Part shown: positions 1 through 59,731 of the stretch, one piece after another
Numbering within the stretch: position 1 is the first letter of the stretch
Layout of the letters: each line of letters opens with the position of its first letter
Assembly (NCBI GenBank): GCA_027319905.1
Contig: DAHVMJ010000002.1
Location: 389 to 64,388, forward strand
From: Candidatus Micrarchaeota archaeon
Lineage (GTDB): Archaea; Micrarchaeota; Micrarchaeia; Micrarchaeales; CABMGC01
Direction: 5' to 3'
DNA: 64,000 nt
The notes under the pieces: model-generated
Told to the model about the DNA's origin: nothing
Databases searched by the model: none
What the model saw: only the letters and a program-made list of their open reading frames with translations
Position numbers and translations under genes: made by a program

Positions 1-861
1 GCCAGAAAGTCCCAGTCTGCAATGGAGTACCTCATGACCTACGGGTGGGCCATACTGATCATAGCAGTAGTCCTAGGAGCGCTTTTTCAACTTGGCGTTT
101 TTAATGCGGGCGCTTTCTCTCCACGGGCGCCTCCAGGAGCCTGCCAAGTATTCAGACCGAACGGCCCGGGTTCTACTACTAACATCAATCTCGAAGGAGT
201 ATGCAACGGCGAGCTGCCGCAATACGCTGGCACATTTAGCGGTGTTGTGACGAGCAATGTAGTTTTAAGCTCTGACACAAATTTCCCTACAGGCACTCAG
301 CAAATAAGCATCTTTGCATGGATAAAAAGCTCCCAGAGCACCACGTATCCCTTTATCTTCAACTACGGCAAATACGGCACCAATCAACAAAATTGGATGT
401 TAGCATTTTATGATGGTCAAGCGTGCGTAGACGTGTGGGGGAGCGGGCCTTGTGCAGGACCTTACATAAATAACAATGCATGGCACTTTGTGGGATTTAC
501 ATACCCTGGCAGCTATCCTGCGATACTTTATGTTGACGGTTCCTCATATTCTCTAACGCCGGGCCTGGCGCCTAACGCTATTACAGGTGCAGGTACAGTT
601 GCAGATATAGGTTATGGCTATGGCAGTTATTTTACTGGAAGCATTGCAGATGTTCAAATCTACAACACCTCCCTCTCAGGTCCAGAAGCGAATGCCCTTT
701 ATGATGAAGGAATTGGTGGCGCGCCGATAAAGCTGCAAAACCTAGTGGGTTGGTGGCCGCTCAACGGCAATGCCAACGACTACTCCGGAAACAATGACAA
801 TGGTGTACCCAACAGCGTTACCTATACCAACCAGTGGACCTCTGGCTACACTCCACCGTAA
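1..861 (+). CDS. Prepilin-like (class III signal peptide) protein with a LamG/concanavalin-A-like domain; 5' end cut by the window edge
   Basis: In-frame codons 1-21 read ARKSQSA ahead of MEYLMTYGWAILIIAVVLGALFQLGVFN, the same leader as paralogs ending at 49786, 53914 and 59674. The LamG_3-type core ends IADVQIYNTSLS..ALYDEG. The C-terminal tail is GWWPLNGNANDYSGN...QWTSGYTPP. Confidence 0.8.
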   Translation, partial: ARKSQSAMEYLMTYGWAILIIAVVLGALFQLGVFNAGAFSPRAPPGACQVFRPNGPGSTTNINLEGVCNGELPQYAGTFSGVVTSNVVLSSDTNFPTGTQQISIFAWIKSSQSTTYPFIFNYGKYGTNQQNWMLAFYDGQACVDVWGSGPCAGPYINNNAWHFVGFTYPGSYPAILYVDGSSYSLTPGLAPNAITGAGTVADIGYGYGSYFTGSIADVQIYNTSLSGPEANALYDEGIGGAPIKLQNLVGWWPLNGNANDYSGNNDNGVPNSVTYTNQWTSGYTPP

Positions 862-867
862 ACAAGA

Positions 868-2382
868 CTAGCCCGCGTTCTGCGTCTCCGCAGATTCCTC
901 TTCCTCTTCCGCCTTGAATAGGTTCTTGTATCTCTTCTCTATCAGGTTTTTGAGCTCCTTCTGCGTCTCCTCTTTCTTCTTTCCTGTCAGTTCCTCGAGA
1001 TCCGCGGAAAGCTGGCTGACATACCTCATTATCGTCTTGTAGCCGCTCTCCTGCACGCTCCTGTGCCGTTCGCCGCTCAGGAATCTCTGCAGCTTCCTGC
1101 CCGCATCCTGCACAGCGAGCTTTATCTCCTCGACTATCTCATCCTCCTGTGCGATCGCCTGCTTGCCAACTCCCGAATAAGGTATGTAGACGCTTGAGAC
1201 ATTGACGAGCACGCTCACCGGTTCTTCGTCGAACTTTGCTATGGAGTAGCGCTTCCAGTCTATTCCCTGCACCGCCTCAGTTATAGCACAGCTGCCAGTG
1301 TCGAACAGTAGCGGCACTTTGTTCGCAAATCTTAGTATGTTGCCCGAAACGAGTTCGCCGTTCTTCCTTCCGGCCTCGCCCCCGTAGGCTATTCCTACCT
1401 CAACCACGAAGGGCACGCCCCCCTTGAATACCTGCGGCTTGCGCTCCACGACGCTGCTGAACTTGGGGTTGAGTATGTTGCGCATAGCGATGTCTATCTG
1501 TTTCTCGCCTATCGTTGACATCGCGTCAAGCTCCGGGCCTATCCACTTCACCCGCTTGAATGCGTTGACTATCTTCGTCGCATCCTCCCACGTAAGCTGT
1601 CTCGGCGCCTTCTCGAAGTCCACGTCTTTTGCAATCTCTACCAGTTCCCTCACCTTGTCGTGCGTGACCCTTGAGAAGGAGTCAACAAGGAAGGACGTGA
1701 CCTTCCTGCTCTCGCTCGTGTGCGCGAAGTCGAGCAGGTCGCTCGCCGATATGCCGAGCGGGTGCGGCAGTATCTGCTTTGGCCTGCGCGGCATCGTTGT
1801 TACAGATCGCGGGAACACGGCTTCGTTGCCGTCGGGTTCTATGAGCTTTATGCTGGCGTGGGGGTTCGATAGCGCAGTTCTGCGTATGTACTCGTAGACG
1901 CCGTGTTCGCCCTTCTCGTACTTGACCTCCCCGAACTCGCCCTCCACGATCAATCCGCGGAAGTCCGATTTTATCTGCTCTAGGTTGTTCACTAGAGGTC
2001 TGTTGCCCTTGATGTCTATGCTAAGGTCGCATGCGTATGCCTCTTTTCCCGTGCCCGACCTCACGTGTATCGGTTTGCCAGTTGTTATCAGTGCAAATAT
2101 GGTGCAGCCGCCTGCCCCTATGCCCTGCTGGCCCCGCTGCTGCATGTACCTGTGGAACTTTGTCCCTGTGAGCACAGACGCCAGCGCCTTGCCGATGTGT
2201 TTTGAGGGTATGCCGGGTCCGTTGTCGCGCACGTAAACGCTGTACCTGCTCTCGGCCAGCTCCTTCACCCTCACCTCTATCTCCGGCAGTATGCCCGCCT
2301 CTTCGCAGGCATCAAGGTTGTTGGTCACGTACTCGTGCACTATGGTTGTCAGCGACCTTACCCTGCCAGCATAGCCGAGCAT
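868..2382 (-). CDS. top6B: DNA topoisomerase VI subunit B
   Basis: GHKL ATPase motifs are present (VTNNLDACEEAGILPEIEV, VRDNGPGIP, GQQGIGA). The conserved N-terminal block HSITEFFRKNSQ lies upstream of the first ATG (2382), so the true start is probably further upstream. An in-frame ATA lies at 2439-2437. Confidence 0.9.
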   Translation of the reverse strand: MLGYAGRVRSLTTIVHEYVTNNLDACEEAGILPEIEVRVKELAESRYSVYVRDNGPGIPSKHIGKALASVLTGTKFHRYMQQRGQQGIGAGGCTIFALITTGKPIHVRSGTGKEAYACDLSIDIKGNRPLVNNLEQIKSDFRGLIVEGEFGEVKYEKGEHGVYEYIRRTALSNPHASIKLIEPDGNEAVFPRSVTTMPRRPKQILPHPLGISASDLLDFAHTSESRKVTSFLVDSFSRVTHDKVRELVEIAKDVDFEKAPRQLTWEDATKIVNAFKRVKWIGPELDAMSTIGEKQIDIAMRNILNPKFSSVVERKPQVFKGGVPFVVEVGIAYGGEAGRKNGELVSGNILRFANKVPLLFDTGSCAITEAVQGIDWKRYSIAKFDEEPVSVLVNVSSVYIPYSGVGKQAIAQEDEIVEEIKLAVQDAGRKLQRFLSGERHRSVQESGYKTIMRYVSQLSADLEELTGKKKEETQKELKNLIEKRYKNLFKAEEEEESAETQNAG

Positions 2383-2473
2383 CTGGCTGTTCTTGCGGAA
2401 GAACTCGGTTATGGAGTGCTCCTTGAACTCCTTGAATATCTCTTCTGCGTTCCTCGTCTTATCCTCAGCCGTG

Positions 2474-16531: not shown

Positions 16532-17740
16532 ATGGTAGACATGGCTGACCAGCCCGTAACCACTAGCATAGACGACCTAGTCAAGTATATCAACGAGCAC
16601 GGCGAAACCGATTCAAGCACCCTCGCAGCGGCGCTCAAGGTCGGCGAGAACATAATAGAGACCTGGGCCGACGTGCTGGAGAAGGCGCAGATAGTCAAGA
16701 TAAACTACAAGCTGGGTAAGATGTTCGTTGCGCCGAAGACGGTCACAAAGGAAGGCGCAGAGGTAGCGAAGAAAACCGTAGAGCTGAAGCGCGGCACGGC
16801 CGAGACCGAGCTCGCGACCCAGCTCAGCATGATAAACCAGATCAACGCAAGGCTGGAGGAATTCAAGAGATACGTGACAAGCGCTGAGGGGGCGTTCAAA
16901 ACCAAAGCCGGCCAGATAAAAGCGACGATAGACCAGATAGACAAGCTGAACGCGCAGGTCGACTCGGCGTACAGGAAGCTGAAGGACAAGAAGGACACGA
17001 TAGACAGGCTTTCTGCTACTCTTGACAAGGAGGCGGCTCAGCTGGAAGAGAAGGCGAGTAGGACTCAGGTTGCAGCCGGGGGCAGCGGCGACCCGCAGAG
17101 AGTTATAAATGATATAAGCGCAAAACTGGAAGACTCCGAGGGCAGGCTAAAGGCGCTGCACTCAAACGTTGACTCCACGCTCAACCAGAGCAGGAACGAG
17201 CTTTCGCAGATGCTCAACAGCATACGCGACGAGACCAAGCTGCTCAGGGACCTGCTCTCGCAGCGGGAGAAGGAACTGCACGACTATGACTCCGTCCTCA
17301 AGTCCTACAAGCAGGAATCAGATTCTGTAAAGAGACAGGCGGCAAGGGAGCGCGCACACATGCTCGATGACATAGCCAGATCAAGCGACGAGGCCGGGAA
17401 GATATACGCCGTGGCCGAGAAGCAGATAACAGACGTGAAGAAGGTGCTCGCGGATACGAAGGCGCAGTTCGGCGGCTTCGCCGATCTTAGCGACAAGCTG
17501 AATGGTATTAAAAGCAGCATCGATTCTATATCAAGGCAGAAGGACGAGCTGCAGAAGGAGTTTGAGCAACTGCAGGAAATGATGCGTGCCCTATCTGCCC
17601 TGGACGATTCGAAGATTGCAGAGAAGAGCATGAAGATGCAGGAGATCAACGAGCGCGTCGACAGGGCCAACAAGAAGATCACGCAACTCGGCAACCAGGC
17701 AGACGATGTGAAGAAGGGCATAGACGAGATGGCGAAGTGA
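16532..17740 (+). CDS. Coiled-coil protein with an N-terminal winged-helix-like domain; first gene of the pilus ATPase operon
   Basis: About 60 aa of wHTH-like sequence (IDDLVKYINEHGETDSSTLAAALKVGENIIETWADVLE) is followed by about 330 aa of heptad-rich sequence. It ends 4 nt before the ATPase gene. Confidence 0.55.
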   Translation: MVDMADQPVTTSIDDLVKYINEHGETDSSTLAAALKVGENIIETWADVLEKAQIVKINYKLGKMFVAPKTVTKEGAEVAKKTVELKRGTAETELATQLSMINQINARLEEFKRYVTSAEGAFKTKAGQIKATIDQIDKLNAQVDSAYRKLKDKKDTIDRLSATLDKEAAQLEEKASRTQVAAGGSGDPQRVINDISAKLEDSEGRLKALHSNVDSTLNQSRNELSQMLNSIRDETKLLRDLLSQREKELHDYDSVLKSYKQESDSVKRQAARERAHMLDDIARSSDEAGKIYAVAEKQITDVKKVLADTKAQFGGFADLSDKLNGIKSSIDSISRQKDELQKEFEQLQEMMRALSALDDSKIAEKSMKMQEINERVDRANKKITQLGNQADDVKKGIDEMAK

Positions 17741-17744
17741 ACTG

Positions 17745-19271
17745 ATGGATGATACACAGCCGCAACCGCAGGATCATGGAGAGAAGGAATACGCTTCTTA
17801 CGAGCTTGACGCACACGGACTCAAGGTCAAGATACGCATAGTTGACAAGGGTACATTCGTACCGCAGTACGAGGTCACCGTGCCGGGCCTCGGCGACGCT
17901 ACGAAGGTTCTGCTCATCTCGCTAAGGCAGGAGCTCCTCTCGATGGTGCCCATAGACCCTACCAGGATAGAGGACAAGGAGTATGTTGAGGAGCTCACTC
18001 AGAAGTACATAGACGCAACCAACATAATCATAGACAGGTACCTGCCAGGATCCAACCCCGATACAAAGAAAGTGCTCATAGCGTACGTGGTCAACTTCAT
18101 GCTTGGCCTCGGAGATCTCGAGGCTCCCCTCTCCGACGACAACCTCGAGGAGGTGGCGGTCAACACTTCCAGAGAACCGATCTGGGTCTACCACAAGAAG
18201 TTCGGCTGGTGCAGGACGAACATAACACTCCAGGACGAGAACATCATATATGACGACGCGGAGCAGATAGGCAGGAGGATAGGCAGGCAGATAACAAACC
18301 TGGCACCGCTCATGGACGCGGAACTACCGGACGGCTCCAGAGTCAACGCGACGCTCTACCCGATTTCTCAGAAGGGAAACACGCTCACAATCAGAAAGTT
18401 CGGAAAGAACCCGTGGACGATGACGGCGATGGTGGCCAACGGCACACTCTCTCCGGAGATAGCCGCACTCACCTGGCTTGCAGTAGAGAACGAGGTAAGC
18501 ATACTCATCTCGGGCGGTACCGCCAGCGGAAAGACAAGCTTCCTCAACGCGATGAGCATTTTCATACCTCCAACGCACAGGATAATCTCGGTTGAGGAGG
18601 ACAGGGAGCTCACGCTGCCCAACTTCCTGCACTGGGTGCCGATGCTGACAAGGCAGCCCAACCCTGAGGGCAAGGGCGAGGTCACTCTCTACAACCTCAT
18701 GATCAACGCGCTTAGGCAGAGGCCTGACGTCATGCTCGTTGGAGAGGTCAGAACAAAGAGCGACGCGGAAACGCTCTTCGAAGCGATACACACGGGCCAC
18801 GCGGTCTACGGCACAGTGCACGCGGATAACGCACAGGATACGATTGTACGTATGACCAACCCTCCCATCGAGGTGCCCAAGCTGATGCTCAATGCGTTCG
18901 GAGGCGTAATCTCGCTGTTCAGGCACAGGAGGCTGGGCATAAGGCGCGTGCTCGAATTCGCCGAGATGATGAGAAACGGAGACGTGAGCGTGGTTTTCAG
19001 ATGGGACATGCGCAACGACACCTTTGCGCAGATAACCGAGATAGCGAGGCTTAGCGAGACGATATCGCTCTACGGCGGCTACGATAGGAGCGAGCTCGAA
19101 CGAAGTCTTGATGAGAAGAAGAGGGTACTGAACTGGATGGTCAAGAACAACATAACCGGCGTTGACGACGCTGGCTACGTTGTATCCAGCTACTACAGGA
19201 ACGCGGAGAAGATGCTGAAGATCGCTGACGATAACCAGCCGTATTCCAAAGAGCTGATTGAGAGGCTGTAG
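17745..19271 (+). CDS. Type II/IV secretion-family ATPase (archaeal FlaI/ArlI-PilB-like)
   Basis: Walker A ILISGGTASGKTS, IISVEEDRELTL and MLVGEVR..ETLFEAIHTGH match the VirB11/GspE/FlaI family. Confidence 0.9.
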   Translation: MDDTQPQPQDHGEKEYASYELDAHGLKVKIRIVDKGTFVPQYEVTVPGLGDATKVLLISLRQELLSMVPIDPTRIEDKEYVEELTQKYIDATNIIIDRYLPGSNPDTKKVLIAYVVNFMLGLGDLEAPLSDDNLEEVAVNTSREPIWVYHKKFGWCRTNITLQDENIIYDDAEQIGRRIGRQITNLAPLMDAELPDGSRVNATLYPISQKGNTLTIRKFGKNPWTMTAMVANGTLSPEIAALTWLAVENEVSILISGGTASGKTSFLNAMSIFIPPTHRIISVEEDRELTLPNFLHWVPMLTRQPNPEGKGEVTLYNLMINALRQRPDVMLVGEVRTKSDAETLFEAIHTGHAVYGTVHADNAQDTIVRMTNPPIEVPKLMLNAFGGVISLFRHRRLGIRRVLEFAEMMRNGDVSVVFRWDMRNDTFAQITEIARLSETISLYGGYDRSELERSLDEKKRVLNWMVKNNITGVDDAGYVVSSYYRNAEKMLKIADDNQPYSKELIERL

Positions 19272-19279
19272 GGCATTGC

Positions 19280-19930
19280 ATGGATGACGACGATTACCAG
19301 AAGGCAGTTTCGCTCGTTGACACGATAGACACATCGCACGGCCCTGAATCCGCGCAGATAGACATGAGCGATGTCTTCGCAAACAGGCTCCAACTAAAGA
19401 AGCTCAGCTACGCAGACGTGGGCCAGCTCATCGAAAGAGGGGAGAAGGGTACGGCGTACAAGCCCGAGGCTGCACAGGCCCCCCAGCCAGCGCAACAAGC
19501 GCACGCGCAACCAGCGCCGCAACGACCCCAACCTCAGCCGCAGCCACAACCTGCGCCGCGTGTGCCTAAGCATGAACTGTCAAAGGATATGAACGGCGCC
19601 GCAGAGAGATTGAGGAGCATGGTCGGAGGCGCAGGGAAGGAGTTTGCCACAGACGTGTCTACAAAGATAGAGGAGGCAAAGGAGGCTAACCTGGTGCTTC
19701 CGAAGCTGTCTCTTCAGGACCAGATATCAGACCTGGACAAGATGAAGGAGGGCATAGACGAACACGTGTTCGATGCCGAACAGCTGCATATAATAGAGGA
19801 GGAAGTGGACGGCATGGAACGCATTTCCACGCGCGAGAGCAAGAGCACGCTGAACGACGAGCAACGCGAACTCGTCATAATGAGAAACCAAAGACTTAAA
19901 GAGCTGAAGGGCAGATTGAATATCGGTTAA
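19280..19930 (+). CDS. Hypothetical protein with a central Pro/Gln-rich tract
   Basis: Contains AQAPQPAQQAHAQPAPQRPQPQPQPQPAP. Operonic position between the ATPase and platform genes. Confidence 0.5.
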   Translation: MDDDDYQKAVSLVDTIDTSHGPESAQIDMSDVFANRLQLKKLSYADVGQLIERGEKGTAYKPEAAQAPQPAQQAHAQPAPQRPQPQPQPQPAPRVPKHELSKDMNGAAERLRSMVGGAGKEFATDVSTKIEEAKEANLVLPKLSLQDQISDLDKMKEGIDEHVFDAEQLHIIEEEVDGMERISTRESKSTLNDEQRELVIMRNQRLKELKGRLNIG

Positions 19931-19947
19931 TCTGTCCGTGTGGTCCA

Positions 19948-21234
19948 ATGGCGCTTTTCGGTGCAAAAAAAGGCGATAAGGAGAAGAAGGAGGAGAACAA
20001 GGGACCAATAGTCGGATTCACAAAACCGAAGAGATTCCTCTTTTTCAAGGTAAAATCTAAGCCCATATACGCCAGCCAGCCGCAGCAGCCGCAGGCAGCG
20101 CAGCCCACGCAACCCCAGCAGCAGGCCGGCCAGCAGCAGGTTCCAAAACCGCAGCCAGCGCAGCAATCCAGGCCTCTCCAACAGCAGCCGCAACAACCAC
20201 AGCAGCCCAAACAGCTCCAGCAACCGCAACCTCGACCTCGTCCAAGCCTCACGTTCAAATCCCCCATCCCGAAATTTTCTTTTAAGATTCCGGCAATGAA
20301 GCCCAGGGCCCAGGCCCGGCAACCCCAGCCCGGGCAGGCCGCGCAGCCCACGGCGCAGAGGCAGCAGACTGCAATGCCGCAGACGCCAGGCGGCAAGCCT
20401 GCGGGCAAGCCGAACCAGTTGCAGATCTACTTCATGAGCATGGCTAGCAAGCACAAAGACCTCGAAGCAGCGCTGAGGGCGCAGAACATAAAGGAGAGCC
20501 CATACGAGTTCGTCAGGAAGATGTTCATCTACGCGATAACCATCAGCGTGGTAGTCGCGATCGCGACGGGGGCATTGCTCGTGAGCTATGGGCTCACCCC
20601 GATACTCGCGCTCGCGCTCGGCATAGCGTGCTACTACGCTCTATTCAACAGGTTCATACGCTACCCGCTGGACAGGAGCGTGGTGGTGGGCAAGGAGATA
20701 GAGAGGGACATACTCTTCGCGGCAAGGGACATGGTGATCAGCATGCGATCAGGCATGCCGCTCTTCAACGCGATAACCGCGGTGAGCACAGGCTACGGTG
20801 CCGCCAGCCTCGAGTTCGCGAAGGTCGTGGAGCTTGTGCAGCTCGGCACACCGATCGAGCAGGCGCTCGACGAGGTGAGCAGCAGAAGCCAGTCCAAGAC
20901 GTTCAAGAGGATAATGCTGCAGGCAACGGTCAGCCTGAAGGCGGGAGCCGATGTCGTGGGCGCGCTGCAAGGAGTGGTCGACGAGGTGATGCAGGAGCGA
21001 GTCATAGAGCTCAGGCGATACGGGCAGAGGCTGAATGCGCTTGCAATGTTCTACATGCTCTTCGGTGTCATCTTCCCCAGCATGGGAATAGCAGTTGCTG
21101 CGATACTCACCACGTTCATCAACCTCTTCAGCATAGACGAGAACACGCTCATCTTTGCTCTTATAGGAATCTTCTTCCTGCAGATAATATTCCTTAATAT
21201 AATGAGGTCCTCAAGACCAACATTCGCAATGTAG
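19948..21234 (+). CDS. Pilus platform protein, first half (one T2SSF/TadB-like domain) with a Q/P-rich N-terminal extension of about 170 aa
   Basis: The C-terminal 250 aa or so have a TMH-helical cytoplasmic domain-2 TMH topology, with sequence resembling FlaJ/PilC/TadB repeats (ILFAARDMVISMRSGMPLFNAI...). Confidence 0.7.
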   Translation: MALFGAKKGDKEKKEENKGPIVGFTKPKRFLFFKVKSKPIYASQPQQPQAAQPTQPQQQAGQQQVPKPQPAQQSRPLQQQPQQPQQPKQLQQPQPRPRPSLTFKSPIPKFSFKIPAMKPRAQARQPQPGQAAQPTAQRQQTAMPQTPGGKPAGKPNQLQIYFMSMASKHKDLEAALRAQNIKESPYEFVRKMFIYAITISVVVAIATGALLVSYGLTPILALALGIACYYALFNRFIRYPLDRSVVVGKEIERDILFAARDMVISMRSGMPLFNAITAVSTGYGAASLEFAKVVELVQLGTPIEQALDEVSSRSQSKTFKRIMLQATVSLKAGADVVGALQGVVDEVMQERVIELRRYGQRLNALAMFYMLFGVIFPSMGIAVAAILTTFINLFSIDENTLIFALIGIFFLQIIFLNIMRSSRPTFAM

Positions 21235-21317
21235 GTGGAAACACGAAGATAGAGTATCAGCGTCTGATATCGAGAAGCGTCGTCACGCTGCTGCAGCGCG
21301 AGCTGTATCTCGCCGGC

Positions 21318-22235
21318 GTGAAGACAGACATAAACAAGTTCCTCCAGGTGCTCATCGTCGGCGGTCTTGGTCTATTCATAGTCATACCTTTCGCCCTCGT
21401 CCTGCTTGCAAAGCTCAGCGCCGGCATAGCCGCGCTCGCCGGAATAGCCGCGGCCGCGATATTCGAGGTGATGATATACGCGACACTCGAGTTCAAGATC
21501 GAGCAGAGAAAGACCTTTGTCGACAACCTGCTGCCCGACTATCTTCAGCTTGCGGGCGCGAACGTCAGGAGCGGAATAGCGCTCGACAAGGCGATGGTCC
21601 TCGCGGCGAGGCCAGAATTCGGCTACTTCAGCGACGACGTGAAGGAGATGAACAAGGAGCTCTATGGCGGCCTGACTCTTCAGCAGTCGATGACCAACCT
21701 GGGCAAGAAGTACAGGTCGACGCAGTTGCAGCACACGATACGCATGATGAACGAAGGCATACAGTACGGAGGAGGCATGACCGACCTGCTCAACCAGATA
21801 GCCAAGGACATACGAAGCCAGCACATGGTTCAGCGCGAGATAAGCGGACAGCTCTTCATGTACACCATATTCATCGCCTTCGCTGCGCTGATAGGAGCCC
21901 CGGTGCTCTACGCGCTTACCTCACAGATGATCGGCGTCACCGATACCGTCTGGGCCGGCATACTCAAACAGAACCCTGGAGGCCTGCCCACAGCGGGCAT
22001 CTCCTTCCTAAGACCCAGCCCCCCGAAGATAACGATAGACGAGTACCATAACTTCGCGCTCTCAAGCGTGATACTCATCACGGGTTTCGGAGCTTTCATA
22101 GTATCGGCAATATCAACTGGTTCGGTGCTGAAAGGGTTACGGTACCTGCCAATCTTCCTGATAGTCGGGCTCGGCGTCTTCTTTGTGGTGTCAGCACTGA
22201 TAGGGAGCATATTCACCAGCATAAGCGGCGTCTGA
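21318..22235 (+). CDS. Pilus platform protein, second half (T2SSF/TadC-like domain)
   Basis: GTG start. LPDYLQLAGANVRSGIALDKAM...MMNEGIQYGGGMTDLL plus flanking TMHs match the second FlaJ/PilC repeat. Confidence 0.7.
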   Translation: MKTDINKFLQVLIVGGLGLFIVIPFALVLLAKLSAGIAALAGIAAAAIFEVMIYATLEFKIEQRKTFVDNLLPDYLQLAGANVRSGIALDKAMVLAARPEFGYFSDDVKEMNKELYGGLTLQQSMTNLGKKYRSTQLQHTIRMMNEGIQYGGGMTDLLNQIAKDIRSQHMVQREISGQLFMYTIFIAFAALIGAPVLYALTSQMIGVTDTVWAGILKQNPGGLPTAGISFLRPSPPKITIDEYHNFALSSVILITGFGAFIVSAISTGSVLKGLRYLPIFLIVGLGVFFVVSALIGSIFTSISGV

Positions 22236-27028: not shown

Positions 27029-27576
27029 CAGCTGACACCAAAACTTTCGTTCGTCCAGAGAAATATCTGCATCTTGACAGGTACGCCATTGAGCACAGCA
27101 GACTGCCTAGCTACCTGCACCGCATAAGGATTTCTCGTATAGGGGTACAGACCCATGCCTATGCTCGTATTGCTGTAGTTTATCTCTATGTACCAGTCGT
27201 AGCCCACGCCCAGCAGCGGCTTCGTGGCTTGGTACGTTATGCTGTTGTAGTTGGCCATCGCCATGAGCGTTATTATCTTATCCTGCGAGATCGCGCTTCC
27301 AGAGCCGGAGCCCAAACCTATGCTCACGTTCTGCCAGGTACCGACATCAATCACATTTACTGCTGAGTTCCAGTCCGATGGCGAGCCCGGTTCCAGTATT
27401 CTTGTCTGCAGGCTCTGCAGTTGTGCCTGCATGGTCTGCAAGCCGAAGCCGTAGGCTATGTTGTACTGGCTGCTCACGTTGACCCAGACGAAGGTGAGTA
27501 TAATTAGCGCGGACCCGAATATGATCATCGCGAAAATGACATCGAATGACCAGAACTGCGCTTTCATGGGAACCAA
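27028..27576 (-). CDS. Small prepilin-like protein
   Basis: Leader MKA|QFWSFDVIFAMIIFGSALIIL. 182 aa, operonic with the other prepilin genes. Confidence 0.65.
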   Translation of the reverse strand: MVPMKAQFWSFDVIFAMIIFGSALIILTFVWVNVSSQYNIAYGFGLQTMQAQLQSLQTRILEPGSPSDWNSAVNVIDVGTWQNVSIGLGSGSGSAISQDKIITLMAMANYNSITYQATKPLLGVGYDWYIEINYSNTSIGMGLYPYTRNPYAVQVARQSAVLNGVPVKMQIFLWTNESFGVS

Positions 27577-46792: not shown

Positions 46793-47374
46793 CTAAGAGA
46801 CCTTGGCCGTTATCGTCGCTATCTTTGCTGTGAGCATCGGGTTAGATCCGCCAGGCGCACCGCTGCTCAACGTGTAGTTCATCCAGAGAGAGCCGCTGAA
46901 GGTCGCGCCCACCGAGCTTGTTCCCATGGCAGGTCCCGCGCTCGTGTAGCAGCTAAGCCCGCTCACTGCAACAGTCTGCCCGCTTGTCAGCGAGAGTGCC
47001 CCTGTGGCAGGCCCGTTAGCAGGCGTCGCGGTAGCAGCGCCGGCGCTGCTCAGGTACACTAGCGCAAGCGTGTTGCTCGGAAGGCCAGTGCTGCCTGCAA
47101 CAGCGTCACATCCAAGCCCTATGTTGTAGAACGTCGAGCCAGTTGCCTGACCAAACGAGGTAAGCGAGAGGGTTCCCGAGGTTGTGAGCGATGGGTTGGT
47201 GCAGAGGTAGCCTGGTGCAGGTATGCAGTTCGTGCCAAGCAGCGTGCCTCCGCTGAATACTCCAAGGGAGAAGAGCGCTCCCAGGACCACGGCTATGATG
47301 AGTATGGCCCAGCCGTAGGTCATGAGGTACTCCATCGCGCTCTGCGCTTTCAACATTCTTCTATTATTTCCCAT
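46793..47374 (-). CDS. Short prepilin-like protein without a LamG domain (candidate major pilin)
   Basis: Leader LKA|QSAMEYLMTYGWAILIIAVVLGALF, followed by about 150 aa of Ser/Thr/Gly/Ala-rich sequence containing two Cys pairs. Confidence 0.7.
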   Translation of the reverse strand: MGNNRRMLKAQSAMEYLMTYGWAILIIAVVLGALFSLGVFSGGTLLGTNCIPAPGYLCTNPSLTTSGTLSLTSFGQATGSTFYNIGLGCDAVAGSTGLPSNTLALVYLSSAGAATATPANGPATGALSLTSGQTVAVSGLSCYTSAGPAMGTSSVGATFSGSLWMNYTLSSGAPGGSNPMLTAKIATITAKVS

Positions 47375-48000: not shown

Positions 48001-48911
48001 CTAAGCACCTTTCCAAGCTTATTGATTCTTGCATTATGGAATAAATACTGTTGCGCATACCCCGCGTACCCGCCCCACCTCTCCTCAGCGAACTCGTGTA
48101 TCTCGCGTATGCTCCGCTTCCGTCCCTTGAAGTACACGTGCTCGACTATGCGCTTTATCCACGTGTCTGTGGGGAAGGCCTCGAGCCTTCCGTAGCCGAA
48201 GAGGAGTATGCAGTCCGCTACCTTGTCGCCGACGCCATCCAGGGACATGAGTTCCTCCTTCGCTTTGGAGTAGTCCTCGCCTTCGATTCTCTTCAGGTCG
48301 AAAGACTCGCTGCACTCGCGTGCAAGTTTCTTTATGTATCTGGCCCTGAATCCCACCCCGTGGCGCATCAGGTCGTCTGTGCTCCTTTCAGCCAACGACT
48401 CTGGCGTCGGGAAGCTTCTGAATCGAAGCTGTGCGCCTCCAGCCAGGAAAGAGTGCTCCTCCCCATAGCTGGCAACAAGCCCCTTCACAATACCCCTTAT
48501 CCTCTTTACGTTGTTGAACTGCGATATGACGAAGCACAATGCCGTTTCCCAGGGATCGTTTCGTGTTATGCGCAGGCCACTATAGCTGTCAATCGCTTTC
48601 TTCATGAAAGCGTCAGTGGCTATGCTCTTGTATATACGCGCCATGTCGTCCCCCAGTCCGAATCTCATGATCACCTCATTCCTCAGTTCTGGGCCCTTGA
48701 TGTTGCCGTAGGCCCTGTAATCAAGCAGGCTTCCCTTCTGCACCACTTCAATCATGCTGTTCTTGTGCGTGTACGTCATCCCCTTGCCGTCGCCTCTCTC
48801 GTCTCCAAAGAACGTCAGCGGCTGAGCGCTCTCGACGGTGTGCGCAAGGTTAAATGTCGTGACTCTCATCTGTCCCATTACGATCACGGAGGCGTATACC
48901 CTGCGGTCCAC
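47997..48911 (-). CDS. ogg: HhH-GPD DNA glycosylase (8-oxoguanine glycosylase/AP lyase, Ogg-type)
   Basis: LMSLDGVGDKVADCILLFGYGRLEAFPTDTWIKR (HhH-GPD with a catalytic K/D context). Using Met 48878 or 48869 as the start would avoid the overlap with the upstream gene. Confidence 0.8.
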   Translation of the reverse strand: MDRRVYASVIVMGQMRVTTFNLAHTVESAQPLTFFGDERGDGKGMTYTHKNSMIEVVQKGSLLDYRAYGNIKGPELRNEVIMRFGLGDDMARIYKSIATDAFMKKAIDSYSGLRITRNDPWETALCFVISQFNNVKRIRGIVKGLVASYGEEHSFLAGGAQLRFRSFPTPESLAERSTDDLMRHGVGFRARYIKKLARECSESFDLKRIEGEDYSKAKEELMSLDGVGDKVADCILLFGYGRLEAFPTDTWIKRIVEHVYFKGRKRSIREIHEFAEERWGGYAGYAQQYLFHNARINKLGKVLR

Positions 48912-49786
48912 TGGCTCGTGTACGTCACGCCGCTTGGCGCGCCGTTGTTGTTATTACCACTGTAGTCGTTCGCGTTTCCGTTGAGCGGCCACCACCCCAC
49001 TAAGTTGGAAAGTTTGATGGGCGCGCCGCCGATGCCCTCGAGATATAGTGCGTTGACTTCTGGAGCTGAGAGTGAAGCGTTGTAGATTTGGACGTTTGCG
49101 ATTTGGCCGTTCATATAATCGGTTGTTGGGTCGTTACCAATCCAGGAGACACCAAGAACAATGTTTAGAGCTGCGCCAATCGAAACTGTTTGACTGTTTG
49201 AATCTTCGTAGAGCGTTACTGAAGAACCGCCAGAGTAAGTGTAACCAATAAAAGTCCATGTGTTTAGCGGAACGGTCATGGTGCTGTAATATCCGCCGGC
49301 AAAATCATAGAACGCTACAGCGCAAGATGCACCATTCACTCCAATGAATTCCATTTCATAATTCACTTTGGTTCCGGAGCTATAAACAGCATACCAACTT
49401 CCTACACCTGGGCAGGCTGAAACGTACATCCATGCAAACGCGCTAGATGAAGACGGACCGGAGGGAATACCAGTAGTGCCCGTTGATATATATTGATTAT
49501 TTATACGTATGAAGCTAGCCACGTACTGCGGCAGTTCGCCGCTGCACACTCCCTCTAAATTAACCAGAGATAAACTACCTGGCCCGTTTGGTCTGAAAAC
49601 CTGGCAGGCTCCTGGCGGCGCGCGGGGTGCAAACGTGCCTGCGTTGAAGACACCAAGCTGGAAGAGCGCTCCCAAAACTACAGCGATGATGAGTATCGCC
49701 CAGCCGTAGGTCATGAGGTACTCCATCGCAGACTGAAGCTTTCTGGTTCTTGCCTTTGGAGTAAGCGGATCAAATCTCTCCGGCAT
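48884..49786 (-). CDS. Prepilin-LamG paralog
   Basis: Leader RKL|QSAMEYLMTYGWAILII, conserved ACQVFRPNGPG..NLEGVCSGELPQY, LamG core, and C-terminal GWWPLNGNANDYSGNNNNG...QWTAGYTPP. Confidence 0.8.
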   Translation of the reverse strand: MPERFDPLTPKARTRKLQSAMEYLMTYGWAILIIAVVLGALFQLGVFNAGTFAPRAPPGACQVFRPNGPGSLSLVNLEGVCSGELPQYVASFIRINNQYISTGTTGIPSGPSSSSAFAWMYVSACPGVGSWYAVYSSGTKVNYEMEFIGVNGASCAVAFYDFAGGYYSTMTVPLNTWTFIGYTYSGGSSVTLYEDSNSQTVSIGAALNIVLGVSWIGNDPTTDYMNGQIANVQIYNASLSAPEVNALYLEGIGGAPIKLSNLVGWWPLNGNANDYSGNNNNGAPSGVTYTSQWTAGYTPP

Positions 49787-51272
49787 GCTTCCTTACCTGC
49801 TTCGTGGTGTTCCTGTCCCTCACTGTCACCGTGCCGTCCTCAAGCGTTGTGTAGTCTATAGTAATGCAGTAAGGCACACCTATCTCGTCGGCGCGGGCGT
49901 AGCGCTTGCCTATGCTTGCAGTTTCGGAATAGTAGCAGTCGGCGTTCTTGTCCTGCAGTAGCGTGTATACCTCCCTCGCCTTTGCGATCAGCTTGTCGTC
50001 CTTCTGCAGCGGAAACACCCCGTACCTGTAAGGTGCTATCCTCTCGCTGAGCCTGAGCCACGACCAGCCCCTGCCGTCGTCGTCAACGACGCTGTTGTCG
50101 AGTATCGCAAACACGGGCCTGTCGCCTCCTATGGTCAGCTCCATCACATTTGGGGTTATCTTCTTGCCGCTCTCAGAGAGCACGGCCAGATCCTTGCCCG
50201 ATTCTTTTGCATGCTGCGAGAGATCCCAGTCGGATCTGTGAGCGGCTCCGGACAGCTCGATGTACCCGTATGAGGTTTTCATCTCGAGGTCTATGTTGCC
50301 CTTCGAGTAGTGCGGCAGCTCCTCCTTCTCCAGCTCCCTGAACCTGTACAGCTTCCTGTCCACTCCCAGTTCCTGCATCAGCCTCTCCTGCAGGTAGATG
50401 AGAAACGCCATGTACTTGTTCGGCACCGAGCCGTTTTTGAGAAGCGCGTCAAGGCCTGCCTCTTTCTCTTCCTCGCTTCCCTTTGCCACGAACCTGACCT
50501 TCTGTCGCAGCATCTCGCTGACCGTGAAGCCCATTATCTCCTTCGGGTCGTCATCCGGGTCTATGAAAAGTTCGAGGTCCATCTGCGTCAGCTCTCGCAG
50601 CCTCACAAGCTGCTGCCTAGGAGATATCTCGTTCCTATACGCCCTTCCGACCTGGGCAATGCCAGCCGGAAGTTTGAGCCCGTAGGTCTTGTAGAGGTGT
50701 ATGAAGTCAACGAAGATGCTCTGCGCGGTCTCAGGTCTAAGGTACGCGACGCTGCCCCCGGAGGTCGGGCCAACCTGCGTCTTGAACGTCATGTTGAACT
50801 TCTCCACTTTGCCGAGCGCGTTCCCGCACCTCTCGCATTTTATGCCGTGCTCTGCAAGCTTCTTCTCCATCTGTGCCATGTCCATCTTCTTTACCTTCGC
50901 GGCCTCGTCAGGCATGCCCTTCTTCTCGTAGTACTCCTCGAGGAGCTTGTCTGCCCTGTACGGGGTCTTGCACACGGTGCACGGGACCATGGGGTCTGTA
51001 AAAGCCGAGAGGTGCCCGCTCGCCCTGAGCACAGGCTCAGGAACGATGTTTGTGCTTTCTATCTCAAGCGCTCCGGTCCTGTTTACGAAGAGCGATCTCC
51101 AAGCGTTCTCGAACCTGCGCTTTATCCTTACGCCTATCGGTCCGTAGTCGTAGAAACCGGCAACGCCGTCGTAGATGCCAAACGCCTGGAAGTAGATTCC
51201 GCGCCTCGCCGCTACGTCCGAAGCCTTGCTCTCCTTCTGGTTTGCCATGCCTACATCGCTATCAGTTTGCAT
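49770..51272 (-). CDS. glyS: Glycine--tRNA ligase (archaeal/eukaryotic alpha2 type)
   Basis: RRGIYFQAFGIYDGVAGFYDYGPIG, class II motifs (YLRPETAQ, GRAYRNEISPR) and a C-terminal anticodon-binding domain. Confidence 0.9.
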   Translation of the reverse strand: MQTDSDVGMANQKESKASDVAARRGIYFQAFGIYDGVAGFYDYGPIGVRIKRRFENAWRSLFVNRTGALEIESTNIVPEPVLRASGHLSAFTDPMVPCTVCKTPYRADKLLEEYYEKKGMPDEAAKVKKMDMAQMEKKLAEHGIKCERCGNALGKVEKFNMTFKTQVGPTSGGSVAYLRPETAQSIFVDFIHLYKTYGLKLPAGIAQVGRAYRNEISPRQQLVRLRELTQMDLELFIDPDDDPKEIMGFTVSEMLRQKVRFVAKGSEEEKEAGLDALLKNGSVPNKYMAFLIYLQERLMQELGVDRKLYRFRELEKEELPHYSKGNIDLEMKTSYGYIELSGAAHRSDWDLSQHAKESGKDLAVLSESGKKITPNVMELTIGGDRPVFAILDNSVVDDDGRGWSWLRLSERIAPYRYGVFPLQKDDKLIAKAREVYTLLQDKNADCYYSETASIGKRYARADEIGVPYCITIDYTTLEDGTVTVRDRNTTKQVRKHAGEI

Positions 51273-51861: not shown

Positions 51862-52992
51862 TTGCTAGCGTTCGCCGCGGCCCTCGGAATTATGCTCGTT
51901 GCCGCGTACGCGCTACTCGGAACCGGGTCAGCAATAGGGAATCTCGCTCCGTCGAGTTGCAGCTTTGACCTAGGCATAGGCTGCCAGAACATAGCCCTTG
52001 TCTCCAACACCACATCCACTTTCTTTGCCTTCATCGGGAACAACGAGCAGGAGTACCCGATAAACAACCTCAGGCTCAACCTTTTCTTTGGCGGAAAGAG
52101 CGTCACTCCGCAGTGCACTACGGGCAGGATAAACCCCGGCGAAACTTTCGTCTGCTTCGCCAAGACGGCCCTACAGCAGAGGCCAGGCACTGTTGCCTCA
52201 GGCAATCTTACGGCGCGTGTGGGCTACTGCTCGCTCAGCGGAGGCGATTGCAGCGGAGGCCAGATATCAGAGACGTACGTCGGCACGTACAACTCTCCAG
52301 TTGGAAGCAGCAATGCAAACGTGGGCTTGGTCTTCTCAAATGCGTTTGTCAAATCCGACGGCCAGATAGCGGTCAACGTCAGCTTCAATCTTCTGGGTTA
52401 CGGCCTGTTCCTTGCCACAGTAAGCCTAAACCCGAGATCGGGCTCATCGCCCACAATAACCGATTCAGGTCCCGGCTCAGCATCGCTAAGCCTGAGCGCC
52501 GGAACGCTGGCGGACTACTGCGCCGCTCTCGTCAACATAACATACGCAAACATGACCGGCACATACGCCGTAGCGCTTAACTCCAGCAACTACAACCAGT
52601 CCAGTTACAAGCTCTCCAGCAACACTAACAACGCATGCCTGTCGCTCCTGAGTGCGACAAAGACAGTATCGATAAGCGGCAAGAACAACACTGCAGGTCT
52701 CTTCACCCTTTCTGATGTGCTGATCAACGTCTCATCGACAGGCTCGCAGAACAACCTGGCGATATTCAATAGCAACGCGACTCTCAAGGTCGAGGGCAAC
52801 TACAACAACATAACCATGTACAACAGCACAGTGGTGCTGAGCATAGAGGGCACGTACAACAGAGTGGCATTCATCAACAGCAGAATAAGCAACCTCACCG
52901 CGAGCGGCAACAACAACCTGGTAATACTGCAGAACACAACAGTAGCTCACGAGAGCGTTACCGGAACCAACGATGTCATACAGAAATCATAG
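51862..52992 (+). CDS. Prepilin-like protein with an N-x-S/T-rich C-terminal repeat region
   Basis: The ORF track starts at TTG inside the hydrophobic helix. The in-frame upstream codons encode GLRA|QASLEYL, a complete prepilin cleavage motif, so the true start lies upstream of 51838. Confidence 0.7.
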   Translation: MLAFAAALGIMLVAAYALLGTGSAIGNLAPSSCSFDLGIGCQNIALVSNTTSTFFAFIGNNEQEYPINNLRLNLFFGGKSVTPQCTTGRINPGETFVCFAKTALQQRPGTVASGNLTARVGYCSLSGGDCSGGQISETYVGTYNSPVGSSNANVGLVFSNAFVKSDGQIAVNVSFNLLGYGLFLATVSLNPRSGSSPTITDSGPGSASLSLSAGTLADYCAALVNITYANMTGTYAVALNSSNYNQSSYKLSSNTNNACLSLLSATKTVSISGKNNTAGLFTLSDVLINVSSTGSQNNLAIFNSNATLKVEGNYNNITMYNSTVVLSIEGTYNRVAFINSRISNLTASGNNNLVILQNTTVAHESVTGTNDVIQKS

Positions 52993-53008: not shown

Positions 53009-53914
53009 CTACGGCGGCGTGTAACCCGACGCCCACTGGTTCGTGTAAGTCACGCCTGCCGGCGCGCCATTGTTGTTATTCCCACTGTAGTCGTTCGCGT
53101 TTCCGTTGAGCGGCCACCAACCCACGAGGTTCTGAAGTTTGATCGGCGCACCACCGATGCCTTCGTCATAGAGGTACAGTATCTCGTTCGCCGACAGCGA
53201 AGTGTTGTAAAGCTGGATGTTTGCGATTTCGCCAGTAAAGCGTTCATTACCTGAAGAATCAGCACCCATATTGAAATTATAATTGCCTGTGCTTTGAGAA
53301 CCGCTCAGTGATAGTGAGGCTGGATCTAGATTTGAATTTACATAGCCATTGAGATTGGAACCCGTGAAAGTACATGTTAGAAAGGTCCATCCACTTGATG
53401 GAACTGTCAATGAGCCATGGAAATAGTTGTCAGCAGTGACATGGGCAAAACAAGCAATAGCATACGGAGGCGCGCCAGAGGTATACACCACAAGGCCGTA
53501 CCCGTCTCCGCCTGCGTTAGCGCCTTCGTCTACAACCGATTCCCATGCACCTCCTGTTTGGGTTTGTCCGTTTAGATTAACCCATGCGCTCAGTGTGAAA
53601 TAGGTATTAAGCTGCAGGCTCTGGTGTTCTCCAACGCCAACAAAGCTGCCAGCATTTCCGGAAAAGACATTTACATACTGCGGCAGCTCGCCGCTGCACA
53701 CGCCCTCCAGGTTTATTAGCGAGGAAGTCATCGGGCCATTGGGCCTGAAGACCTGACACGCGCCGGGTGGCGCTCTTGGAGCAAAGGTGCCTGCATTGAA
53801 GACGCCAAGCTGGAAGAGCGCGCCGAGGACAACTGCTATAATTAGTATGGCCCAGCCGTAGGTCATCAGATACTCCATCGCGCTCTGCGATTTCCTGGAG
53901 CGTTGCCCTTTCAT
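53009..53914 (-). CDS. Prepilin-LamG paralog
   Basis: MKGQRSRKS|QSAMEYLMTYGWAILII leader, LamG core and C-terminal GWWPLNGNANDYSGNNNNG...QWASGYTPP. Confidence 0.85.
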   Translation of the reverse strand: MKGQRSRKSQSAMEYLMTYGWAILIIAVVLGALFQLGVFNAGTFAPRAPPGACQVFRPNGPMTSSLINLEGVCSGELPQYVNVFSGNAGSFVGVGEHQSLQLNTYFTLSAWVNLNGQTQTGGAWESVVDEGANAGGDGYGLVVYTSGAPPYAIACFAHVTADNYFHGSLTVPSSGWTFLTCTFTGSNLNGYVNSNLDPASLSLSGSQSTGNYNFNMGADSSGNERFTGEIANIQLYNTSLSANEILYLYDEGIGGAPIKLQNLVGWWPLNGNANDYSGNNNNGAPAGVTYTNQWASGYTPP

Positions 53915-57983: not shown

Positions 57984-58036
57984 TGCTTGCGATTTAAGTA
58001 CGTTAACACACATACCAATAGCAAAACGGTGGCTGC

Positions 58037-58747
58037 ATGGACAGAAGAGAGGACGCGGAGAACTACACCTATCAGAAAGAACTCGAGGAGGAGCGCAAGC
58101 AGCCAGACGCGGCCCGCGACGAGTACGTCGAAGAGAACGGGGTCAAGTTCAGAGTGCCTTACAAGATGGTAAGGGAGGTAACGTTCAGCAACGTGAGGAA
58201 GGAGGAGCTTATAGACACGGAGCACGCCGCGAGGCTGCAGTACAGGCTTATGCTGCAAGAGGCGGTGCTCTTCGCCAAGGTCGAGTTCGTGACAAGGAAG
58301 ATACGCATAACCTACAATCCCGACGACGTGGTGAACAGGAAGGCGAAGATGAGCCTGCAGCAGCTTGTTGAATTCCTGTCGAAGCAGGGGGTTAATGTCA
58401 GCGCCGAGGGCCCTGACACCAGCCAGAGGGATGTCGACTACTACACGGAACACTACAGCTACCACTTCAACCCCGCCGTAATCCGCGAGCACCCGCCCTA
58501 CGGCTATACCCGCGAGGAGTGGCAGGAGATGAAGGTAGAGTACGAGGGAAAGAAAGTGGAGTACGAGAAGGGCAAGCTGGACAAGTTCCACGCGTTCCAG
58601 GCAGAGTACCTGCAGGAGCACCCGGACCTCGCGGAGCAGCTGGGCATCAAGCTGGAGGCAAAGCCTGAGGACAAATCGGTGCTGGGCAGGGTGCTCAAGA
58701 AAAAGAAGGAGACCAGAGACAAGGGATTCTGGTTCCACGGCGTATAG
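58037..58747 (+). CDS. Hypothetical protein (charged, ferredoxin-like/HMA-like central segment without CxxC)
   Basis: ORF directly downstream of the radical SAM gene. The segment VEFVTRKIRITYNPDDV...LVEFLSKQGVNV is beta-alpha-beta-like. Confidence 0.5.
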   Translation: MDRREDAENYTYQKELEEERKQPDAARDEYVEENGVKFRVPYKMVREVTFSNVRKEELIDTEHAARLQYRLMLQEAVLFAKVEFVTRKIRITYNPDDVVNRKAKMSLQQLVEFLSKQGVNVSAEGPDTSQRDVDYYTEHYSYHFNPAVIREHPPYGYTREEWQEMKVEYEGKKVEYEKGKLDKFHAFQAEYLQEHPDLAEQLGIKLEAKPEDKSVLGRVLKKKKETRDKGFWFHGV

Positions 58748-58759
58748 CAGTTGCTGATT

Positions 58760-59674
58760 CTACGGAGGAGTGTATCCGCTGGTCCACTGGCTCGTGTACG
58801 TGACCCCACCACTGGTCGCTCCGTTGCCGTCGTTTCCGCTGTAGTCGTTGGCGTTTCCATTCAGCGGCCACCAGCCGACAAGGTTCTGGAGCTTGAGCGG
58901 CGCGCCGCCGATGCCTTCAGAATATAGGTACTGTATCTCGTTGGATGAGAGTGACGTGTTGTAGATCTGCACGTTAGAGATGGAACCGTTGAAATAGCGG
59001 TCCCAGATGCCTATCCTGAACTGCCCGTTTTGAACCGGGGCACAGGTGACTGCAGAACCATAGGGGCCTCCAACGCCATTTATGTATTCTGACGGTGTTC
59101 CTGCGCTATTCGTATTCCCGTTCACACCGTTGAAAGTCATCGCTGAGAATATCCAGATGCCTTTAAAATTCGAGGAGGAATAGTATTGGTCGCCGCCAGT
59201 GCTGCCGGCGCCATTGTTGTAGATATATTCAAATCTGTAAGAGCCGTCGTTGTTCTCAAGGTCAGGGCCGCCGTACACAACGCCACCAGATGAGCCATAT
59301 GCCTGAATCGCGACTATTCCGCCTCTGTTGCCTGAACTCGGCATTCCGGAATCGTACGACCATGCTGTTAAAGTAAAGTTGCATAGCGCGTTGTCTGCTG
59401 AGGTTGTCATTGTCACCACAGCGCCATTGCCGTTGAAAACGCCAACGTACTGCGGCAGTTCACCGTTGCACACGCCTTCCAGATTGATAAACTGTGCCGT
59501 ATTGGGACCATTGGGCCTGAATACCTGGCACGCTCCGGGCGACGCTCTTGGGGCAAAGGCGCCAGCGTTGAAGACGCCGAGCTGGAACAAAGCGCCGAGG
59601 ACAACCGCTATGATCAGTATGGCCCACCCGTAGGTCATGAGGTACTCCATCGCGCTCTGCGATTTTCTTGGCAT
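58760..59674 (-). CDS. Prepilin-LamG paralog
   Basis: MPRKS|QSAMEYLMTYGWAILII leader (the ORF track extends to 59722), LamG core and C-terminal GWWPLNGNANDYSGNDGNG...QWTSGYTPP. Confidence 0.8.
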   Translation of the reverse strand: MPRKSQSAMEYLMTYGWAILIIAVVLGALFQLGVFNAGAFAPRASPGACQVFRPNGPNTAQFINLEGVCNGELPQYVGVFNGNGAVVTMTTSADNALCNFTLTAWSYDSGMPSSGNRGGIVAIQAYGSSGGVVYGGPDLENNDGSYRFEYIYNNGAGSTGGDQYYSSSNFKGIWIFSAMTFNGVNGNTNSAGTPSEYINGVGGPYGSAVTCAPVQNGQFRIGIWDRYFNGSISNVQIYNTSLSSNEIQYLYSEGIGGAPLKLQNLVGWWPLNGNANDYSGNDGNGATSGGVTYTSQWTSGYTPP

Positions 59675-59731
59675 GTCCTCTCGCTTATCTGATTGCGTAA
59701 TTATAAATAGATTCCCAGTCATTTTCTAGCG

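Follow-up and report, generated by a model that had tools for sequence, protein, structure and literature searches.

A large, species-specific family of predicted LamG-headed pilins in a Micrarchaeota genome

A 64,000-nt stretch of a Candidatus Micrarchaeota genome (hereafter the window; C22:389-64388 of assembly G000, which comprises 855,448 bp in 40 contigs and is 91% complete) carries four genes whose products share near-invariant N- and C-terminal blocks around divergent laminin G-like (LamG) cores. A preliminary description of this DNA, which comes from an organism of the DPANN/Micrarchaeota type, read the genes as a variable adhesin repertoire with ends for assembly, anchoring and recombination. 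We find that they belong to a family of ~35 copies in this genome, confined to one order of Micrarchaeota, and consider it likely that the family is a static, individually conserved set of lectin-headed pilins with rapid turnover, probably for cell attachment. Judged by sequence and structural models, the proteins are predicted to be type IV pilin-like, with a class III signal and one LamG head of concanavalin A (ConA)-like lectin fold. Purifying selection on the protein mainly explains the conservation of the ends, with a ratio of nonsynonymous to synonymous substitution rates (dN/dS) of ~0.05, and the retained cores are under purifying selection and not hypervariable. The adhesin proposal is therefore kept for a set of surface proteins in which the pilin-type N-terminus is constant and the LamG head varies, and given up for the C-terminal end as an anchor and for the shuffling of cores.

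All four open reading frames (ORFs) are present as described (Table 1); the first is truncated at its 5′ end by the window edge, its likely ATG lying 12 nt ahead of base 1 (C22:377), which would give the leader MQRKARKS. Near-invariant ends and cores divergent in sequence and length were likewise confirmed, with an N block of 71 aa (from Q+1 to LPQY) and a C block of 72–73 aa; the four proteins are 54–58% identical to one another, and 4/4 pass the Pfam model Laminin_G_3 (PF13385; E 7.8e-8 to 9.6e-20, 33–71.7 bits against a curated cut-off of 27.6). The family is, though, far larger than four genes. There were 49 matches to it in a search of the genome, and a six-frame scan gave 31 ORFs of 230–400 aa with the N motif, 29 of them complete, plus ~8 fragments; family-homologous DNA amounts to 32,952 bp, or 3.85% of the genome. 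Public homologues (3,791 matches at E<=1e-3) are labelled ‘LamG domain-containing protein’ and come from Ca. Micrarchaeota and, in some cases, Marsarchaeota. When 121 genomes of the phylum were sampled, full-length members (E<=1e-40) were detected in 43, all 43 from the same order, at 0 to 48 copies per genome. The relatives compared are referred to as G002, G004, G006, G007, G010, G020, G030 and G032. G032, a complete genome from another family of the order, contains a recent tandem amplification, in which five family copies with identical scores follow each other with an exact period of 1,974 nt (G032:C1:583631-592414). A 42-aa N-terminal family fragment at C5:4599-4739 of G000, upstream of family member C5_5085, is 99% identical to C27:1-141, C27 being a contig of 922 bp; either it is what remains of a truncated pseudogene, or the assembly forks there at a family member.

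The members have a common layout: a short leader rich in K and R, the segment QSAMEYLMTYGWAILIIAVVLGALFQLGVFNAG (Q+1, E+5 and ~30 hydrophobic residues), a conserved linker with two cysteines, the LamG core and the C block. Leaders measure 3–25 aa and have K or R at –2 or –3 in nearly all 31 copies. After the predicted cleavage site QSAMEYLMTYGWAILIIAVVLGALFQLGVF is invariant or nearly so, and the hydrophobic helix with E+5 spans 33 aa; leader, Q+1, E+5 and helix are invariant across the 29 complete copies and 121 database homologues. The +1 residue of EppA substrates is Q. An AlphaFold2 (AF2) model of the third window protein (P0003, 121-sequence alignment) has a helix at residues 12–35 (predicted local distance difference test, pLDDT, 75–92) and a confident LamG sandwich at 80–260 (core pLDDT 76–93). 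For the modelled core, Foldseek assigned a probability of 1.0 to matches with pentraxins and with the PAPP-A LamG domain; together with a profile search of the PDB, it returned only generic LamG, pentraxin and ConA-like jelly rolls, covering the core alone. The only Pfam and NCBIfam models matched by the whole proteins were LamG and TafC.

Each complete copy but one has an in-frame ATG, GTG or TTG, and a TATA-like hexamer lies at –45 to –15 in 15/29 copies, compared with 3.3% of random positions. One such box is found ~36 nt ahead of the ATG of the window gene LamG53; in LamG58 the ATG nearest the cleavage site, at 59674, would give the leader MPRKS. In the family member at C33:49173-50198 a (GA)11 repeat precedes the Q codon by ~50 nt, and ATG, GTG and TTG are all missing in frame; the gene may be a pseudogene, use an unusual start or be under slipped-strand control. 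C5_5085 also has a dinucleotide run upstream, (CA)7, but an in-frame TTG is present there.

The preliminary description had the end blocks conserved as DNA, too. At the nucleotide level this conservation is weak: paralogous end blocks are 74–83% identical over 210–230 nt, codon positions 1–2 have an identity of 0.9–1.0 but third positions of 0.37–0.76, and the 36-mer quoted as an example occurs exactly once in the genome, with 1–9 mismatches in other copies. Codon alignment of the 29 complete copies (406 pairs per block, to which the pairwise statistics below refer) gave Nei-Gojobori medians for the proportions of synonymous (pS) and nonsynonymous (pN) differences of 0.70 and 0.10 in the N block, 0.73 and 0.15 in the C block, and 0.80 and 0.61 in the core. 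Silent sites of the ends are thus near saturation, which largely goes against an identity above protein constraint. Identity at 4-fold degenerate sites was 0.38–0.39 in the N block, 0.37 in the C block and 0.265 in the cores, the expectation from composition being 0.26. Ends of two congeneric genomes compared with those of G000 gave 0.37–0.42, equal to the value within G000, and ends of other genera gave 0.29–0.34, which is below it. Since silent identity within the genome equals that against congeners, there has been no genome-specific homogenisation on the timescale of species divergence.

We regard it as improbable that the ends are kept alike mainly by frequent gene conversion instead of protein constraint. 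Such conversion would fit with 11 end-block positions at which all G000 copies have one near-fixed residue and all 29 sampled copies of G020 a different one, with the monophyly of the copies of each of the distant genomes G020, G004 and G030, with a 4-fold identity of 0.63–0.66 within clusters of G004, and with the significant conversion tracts presented below. It is at odds with the state of the G000 ends, where amino acids are held while silent sites drift, and with the equality of silent identity within the genome and against congeners; moreover, across 121 homologues from numerous genomes these blocks stay at least 90% invariant, and modules of other proteins have a C block conserved to an equal degree. 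Protein constraint is therefore retained as the chief explanation, and the lineage-specific residues and the monophyly point to ends that, over longer times, evolve together slowly (slow concerted evolution).

The other proteins with a C block are giants encoded in the pilus locus of the window (Table 1), in which it trails LamG modules as ..F.G.IANVQ.YN..LS....LY.EGI.G.P...LVGWWPLNGNANDYSGN.NNG. It is present after the last modules of g877 and g722, and the last module of g1132 retains the first part only. In an AF2 model of g877 residues 375–877 (52-sequence alignment), the C block has a pLDDT of 86–92 after module 1, is separated from module 2 by a 50-residue linker of low confidence (45–53), and has a pLDDT of 81–92 after module 2, with nothing beyond. 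This reading of the model is based on confidence values and secondary structure, not on contacts. The C block most likely folds onto the preceding LamG module. Its recurrence in the giants and its confident modelling behind each g877 module make it probable that it belongs to the lectin fold, as the closing part of a LamG subtype, formed by the last strand, a helix and the WWPLNGNANDYSGN strands, and is not the assembly or anchoring end for which it had been taken. It would then provide from the C-terminal side the strands that canonical LamG_3 has N-terminally, amounting to a circular permutation. A role of the C-terminal WWPLNG segment as a donor strand or orphan leader is disfavoured by the pLDDT of 81–92 after both modules. 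As a speculation, the Asn/Asp-rich loop might bind a metal or ligand. We also considered whether the cysteine linker of the N block is the second half of the giants’ inter-module linker and dropped the idea: a linker profile run against 55 homologues of the giants gave nothing significant, the best match (E 0.005) lying elsewhere, and hhalign begins only at QYV.FNG.

That the ends act as substrates for recombination holds to a limited extent. In a GENECONV-like permutation over polymorphic sites with a global 95% threshold, 3/406 pairs of the N block and 5/406 pairs of the C block exceeded the threshold (8 of 812 pair-blocks). The longest runs took in 64 and 70 polymorphic sites, corresponding to exactly identical stretches of 122 and 107 nt; permuted data reached no more than 37 and 33 sites. 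The longest exact match shared by a pair had a median of 20 nt and reached at least 25 nt in 31% of pairs. One copy, C13_6029, has a mosaic make-up with three sources: the opening 45 codons match C40_7111 at 95–100% identity, the core matches that of C5_5085 at 83–100%, and the closing 30 codons match C11_83743 at 100%. The synonymous rate (dS) between C5_5085 and C13_6029, the only pair of the 406 with a similar core, is higher in the ends (0.95–1.12) than in the core (0.47), as expected if the ends were overwritten after duplication. The window copy at 53009-53914 has one borderline tract, a run of 30 polymorphic sites shared with C5_5085. Gene conversion is thus real but rare, with short tracts confined to the ends and spanning no core, and ongoing conversion is not the main cause of their likeness.

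In Neisseria pilE/pilS, conserved segments flank variable ones in many pilin copies, between which gene conversion takes place. The conserved flanks and the inter-copy conversion of the present family recall that arrangement, and a system of this type, in which the ends act as homology arms for the exchange or inversion of cores, would also account for the exact tracts of 122 and 107 nt, the eight pair-blocks beyond the permutation threshold, the union in C13_6029 of one paralogue’s core with end tracts of two others, and the occurrence of family members at 11 of 80 contig ends where 5.8 are expected (P=0.03). We nevertheless consider it very unlikely. The family copies are complete, each with its own leader and start and half with promoter-like boxes, and we found no silent cassettes: among the 29 complete copies there was no layout of promoterless or 5′-truncated donors plus a single locus. 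The conserved segments are only 74–83% identical as DNA, with silent sites near saturation and equal identity within and between species, and the tracts are rare and lie within the ends. Core shuffling was not seen, a similar core being found in the single pair named above and orthologous cores being under purifying selection. No inversion between the plus-strand copy and the minus-strand copies was seen either, the segment being collinear with the congeners G007, G002 and G010. Nor were there variant alleles at the two loci of the Nop56-LamG53-aaRS-LamG48-OGG region (aaRS, aminoacyl-tRNA synthetase) in two independent public assemblies of the same population, which were 99.9% identical over these loci (99.98% and 99.88%). 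Assembly breaks are in any case a weak sign of hypervariability, some being due to near-identical stretches of 89–254 nt with k=77 overlaps. We therefore favour a fixed repertoire, probably with no programmed switching. The contigs C40 and C39 share an identical 49-nt 3′ flank (C40:1-49 and C39:27888-27936) behind family members with the same unusual C-terminus (..ASSYTTP) that are otherwise ~80% identical; C40 begins at the shared flank, which may stem from a conversion tract that extends beyond the stop codon or reflect two population alleles.

Diversity-generating retroelements (DGRs) have been reported as common in DPANN archaea, and one of them could in principle have diversified the cores. 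We give this practically no credence: a search with RVT_1 found no reverse transcriptase in the genome, which refutes a DGR for this assembly unless the enzyme is encoded in the ~9% of the genome that it lacks, and what separates the cores is wholesale sequence difference and indels instead of adenine-specific substitutions. Shared flanks, repeats and mobile-element signatures around the copies were also absent upstream of about –8 and downstream of the stop codon.

Core identity is ~0.19–0.21, the same within and between genomes, and a core-only BLAST gave the same weak scores in both comparisons (median 23–31 bits), indicating that the cores are saturated. Because saturation of pS precludes a family-wide core dN/dS, we used three orthologue pairs and one recent paralogue pair. 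The three orthologue pairs, between G000 and its congener G006, are 79–85% identical overall, like neighbouring housekeeping proteins, and have a core dN/dS of 0.05–0.09. Yet orthologues are few: among the 15 full-length copies recovered from G006, one of at least 78% identity exists for only 3 of the 29 G000 copies.

The chromosomal sites of the window genes reflect the same turnover. The genus has a conserved backbone (DHH - orf236 - radical SAM - Nop56 - unknown 376-aa gene - aaRS - OGG - translin - short pilins - orf307), and in seven congeners no LamG gene stands at the sites that LamG48, LamG53 and LamG58 (48.9, 53.0 and 58.8 kb) occupy in G000. In G006, family copies fill the orf288/orf236 site (three copies) and the neighbourhood of Nop56 (at least four), none orthologous to window copies. 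In G007 the aaRS stop overlaps the OGG start (TGATG); in G000 LamG48 (region 48877-49790) fills exactly this junction, with the OGG ATG 7 nt past its stop and its own ATG and first six codons inside the 3′ end of the aaRS gene. From the empty sites in congeners and the copy numbers of 0 to 48, we conclude that the repertoire in all likelihood changes through gain and loss of whole genes, making the set species-specific. A 6-nt ‘TTGATC’ at both junctions of the aaRS/OGG insertion is a weak signal. The LamG48 start appears to have been recruited within the aaRS 3′ end, where that frame reads WSERFD in G007 and MPERFD in G000. The unknown 376-aa gene beside LamG53 (51862-52992; relatives L032 and L036) has no Pfam match and evolves fast, at 51–65% identity compared with 80–88% for its neighbours; it is tandemly duplicated in G007 and G002.

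With regard to machinery, the genome encodes one Peptidase_A24 protein, at C11:140504-141457, above the cut-off (33.7–34.8 bits; cut-off 26.5) and three T2SSE assembly ATPases, one of them within the window; the C33 family member lies directly downstream of a T2SSE ATPase gene. Four short pilins (153–183 aa mature) bear the same helix as the LamG pilins. Among them is pil193, which has the family leader and helix (QSAMEYLMTYGWAILIIAVVLGALF), is syntenic across the genus, where it occurs as 2–4 tandem copies, and is a candidate core pilin.

We infer leader cleavage, filament incorporation and host adhesion, and propose the following mechanism. The single prepilin peptidase would remove the leader before Q+1, and one of the three pilus ATPase/platform machines would lift the helix from the membrane into a filament, which probably includes the short pilins bearing the same helix. 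The LamG head would point outwards and serve as an adhesin that binds ligands, probably glycans. The N block would be constant since all paralogues must fit the same peptidase, machine and filament core, and the C block as the closing part of the LamG subtype. The cores appear to be old and mutually unrelated (~20% identity), with each conserved individually, so that the repertoire would be a set of fixed specificities. Whole genes gained and lost at many intergenic sites would render this set species-specific, and rare short conversion tracts in the end blocks may, over long times, make the ends of a lineage’s copies evolve together.

It is also possible, though we think unlikely, that the proteins are processed by the peptidase but serve as membrane-tethered or pseudopilus-mounted binding proteins, much as the sugar-binding proteins of the Sulfolobus bindosome do, for nutrient capture and not attachment. 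The dispersal of the genes amid housekeeping genes outside pilus operons and the large head (~230 aa) would suit this, as would a 2026 survey of archaeal type IV filaments (PMC13705601), which for DPANN mentions only scattered components of these and for Sulfolobales notes substrate-binding proteins that have class III signals. A place in pili is favoured by the helix, identical to that of the short pilins, by the homologous modules in pilus-operon proteins and by the member directly after an assembly ATPase; furthermore, LamG is not a solute-binding fold.

Several points weigh against a static set of lectin-headed pilins. The four window copies sit amid housekeeping genes, and only one member adjoins pilus machinery. 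Residue –1 is S, L, A or M instead of the usual G/A, L and M being atypical, and no Pfam or NCBIfam class III signal or archaeal pilin model matched the N-terminal 61 aa or the whole proteins, a weak negative because short motif models are often filtered out. The linker (45–80) and last 30 residues of P0003 are poorly modelled in the monomer. The 4-fold identity of the ends (0.38) exceeds the random value (0.26), indicating some homogenisation or site-specific codon preference. Monophyly in each distant genome could reflect lineage-specific bursts and not concerted evolution, the two being inseparable because the cores are saturated, and differential loss or horizontal transfer could be the source of new copies.

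The closest characterised analogue appears to be PilC of Streptococcus sanguinis, a modular pilin with a class III signal, a short pilin moiety and a glycan-binding ConA-like lectin module (PMC9934059); PilB is a further modular pilin of that species (PMC8179133). Both combine E5 in a class III signal with a short pilin part and a grafted module of ConA-like lectin fold, which in the family, too, would be displayed on a type IV filament for adhesion to glycans. Unlike PilC, the family is archaeal, has Q+1, and has almost no globular pilin moiety (a 40-aa two-Cys linker only); its LamG module has the conserved trailing segment, it consists of ~35 paralogues with unrelated cores, dispersed outside a pilus operon, instead of one gene, and its function is predicted from sequence. 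Methanococcus maripaludis Epd-type pilins, ‘system 1’ of the type IV filament survey (PMC13705601), share Q+1 and E+5 and belong to a pilus system with an ATPase, two platform genes and several minor pilins, some of which bear adhesin-like domains. In contrast to them, the family agrees with the QxSxExxxL signal only in part (QSAMEYL) and matches no class III signal model. TafC, the LamG-bearing tip subunit of haloarchaeal Tat-fimbriae for which adhesion has been proposed (PMC11821415), is likewise an archaeal filament subunit with a laminin-G-like domain, and its NCBIfam model matched the LamG part weakly (E 3e-10). TafC, however, has no class III signal but is secreted through Tat and built by donor-strand assembly, and a score of 39.8 bits against a cut-off of 410 for NF052521, on the LamG part only, means that the proteins are not members of the TafC family.

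Within the same phylum, an expansion of the same domain, as LamG-like jelly rolls, has been described in ‘Ca. Mancarchaeum acidiphilum’ Mia14 and other DPANN, where some copies were tied to loci for type IV pili and a part in interaction with host cells was suggested (Golyshina et al. 2017, PMC5498576); arCOG07813 LamG-like proteins are reported from Undinarchaeota (PMC7414124). The passages of these two papers on LamG-like proteins contain no mention of a pilin-type N-terminus, a layout of constant ends and divergent cores, the selection regime or turnover between species, and we found no paper on the pilin-type N-terminus, selection regime or turnover of this family.

Host recognition and attachment by DPANN archaea are still to be explained. 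A family that takes up ~4% of a genome of less than 1 Mb, is almost wholly different between congeners and yet conserved in its retained members fits what would be expected of partner-specificity determinants. The candidates put forward here are the LamG-headed family, the short pilins that share its helix and the pilus locus that encodes the giants. The reading of the family as a recombination device is corrected by the finding that its conserved ends are chiefly due to protein constraint. Going further, one might picture heteropolymeric ‘lectin-brush’ pili, in which dozens of interchangeable LamG-headed subunits, each with its own conserved specificity, share a stem. Each species would assemble its set from a pan-genomic pool, with single genes coming and going horizontally at intergenic sites, and this set would decide which hosts it can attach to, with the invariant Asn/Asp-rich WWPLNGNANDYSGN as a shared metal- or glycan-binding or docking element; we offer this picture as a long shot.

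Table 1. LamG pilin-like and pilus-related genes of the window (positions in the window)
Feature	Position	Strand	Parts and remarks
LamG pilin-like paralogue 1, 5′ end cut	1-861	+	Laminin_G_3 E 7e-14; N block 13-225 (helix 13-111), core 226-642, C block 643-858
Paralogue 2, LamG48	48884-49786	-	wedged between aaRS and OGG genes; N block 49523-49735, core 49103-49522, C block 48887-49102
Paralogue 3, LamG53 (P0003)	53009-53914	-	antisense between the unknown gene and Nop56; N block 53675-53887, core 53228-53674, C block 53012-53227
Paralogue 4, LamG58	58760-59674	-	frame open to 59722; N block 59447-59659, core 58982-59446, C block 58763-58981
T2SSE type IV pilus/archaellum-type assembly ATPase	17745-19271	+	
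Two T2SSF platform-protein genes	19948-21234 and 21318-22235	+	
Five consecutive pilin-like genes	22236-31434	-	operon
g877, multi-LamG giant	22236-24869	-	877 aa
g722, beta-propeller plus LamG	24860-27028	-	722 aa
g1132, multi-LamG giant	27564-30962	-	1132 aa
pil193, short pilin-like gene	46793-47374	-	no LamG domain

The region 16532-31434 of the window holds a complete type IV pilus-like locus, with genes for a coiled-coil protein, the ATPase and the platform proteins on the plus strand and the five convergent pilin-like genes on the minus strand. Elsewhere in the genome there are repeats unrelated to the family, between C11:183-1722 and C24:1378-2919 (1.5 kb, 96% identical) and between C28 and C7 (0.7 kb, 90%), and several contig ends overlap by exactly 77 nt, the k-mer of the assembler.

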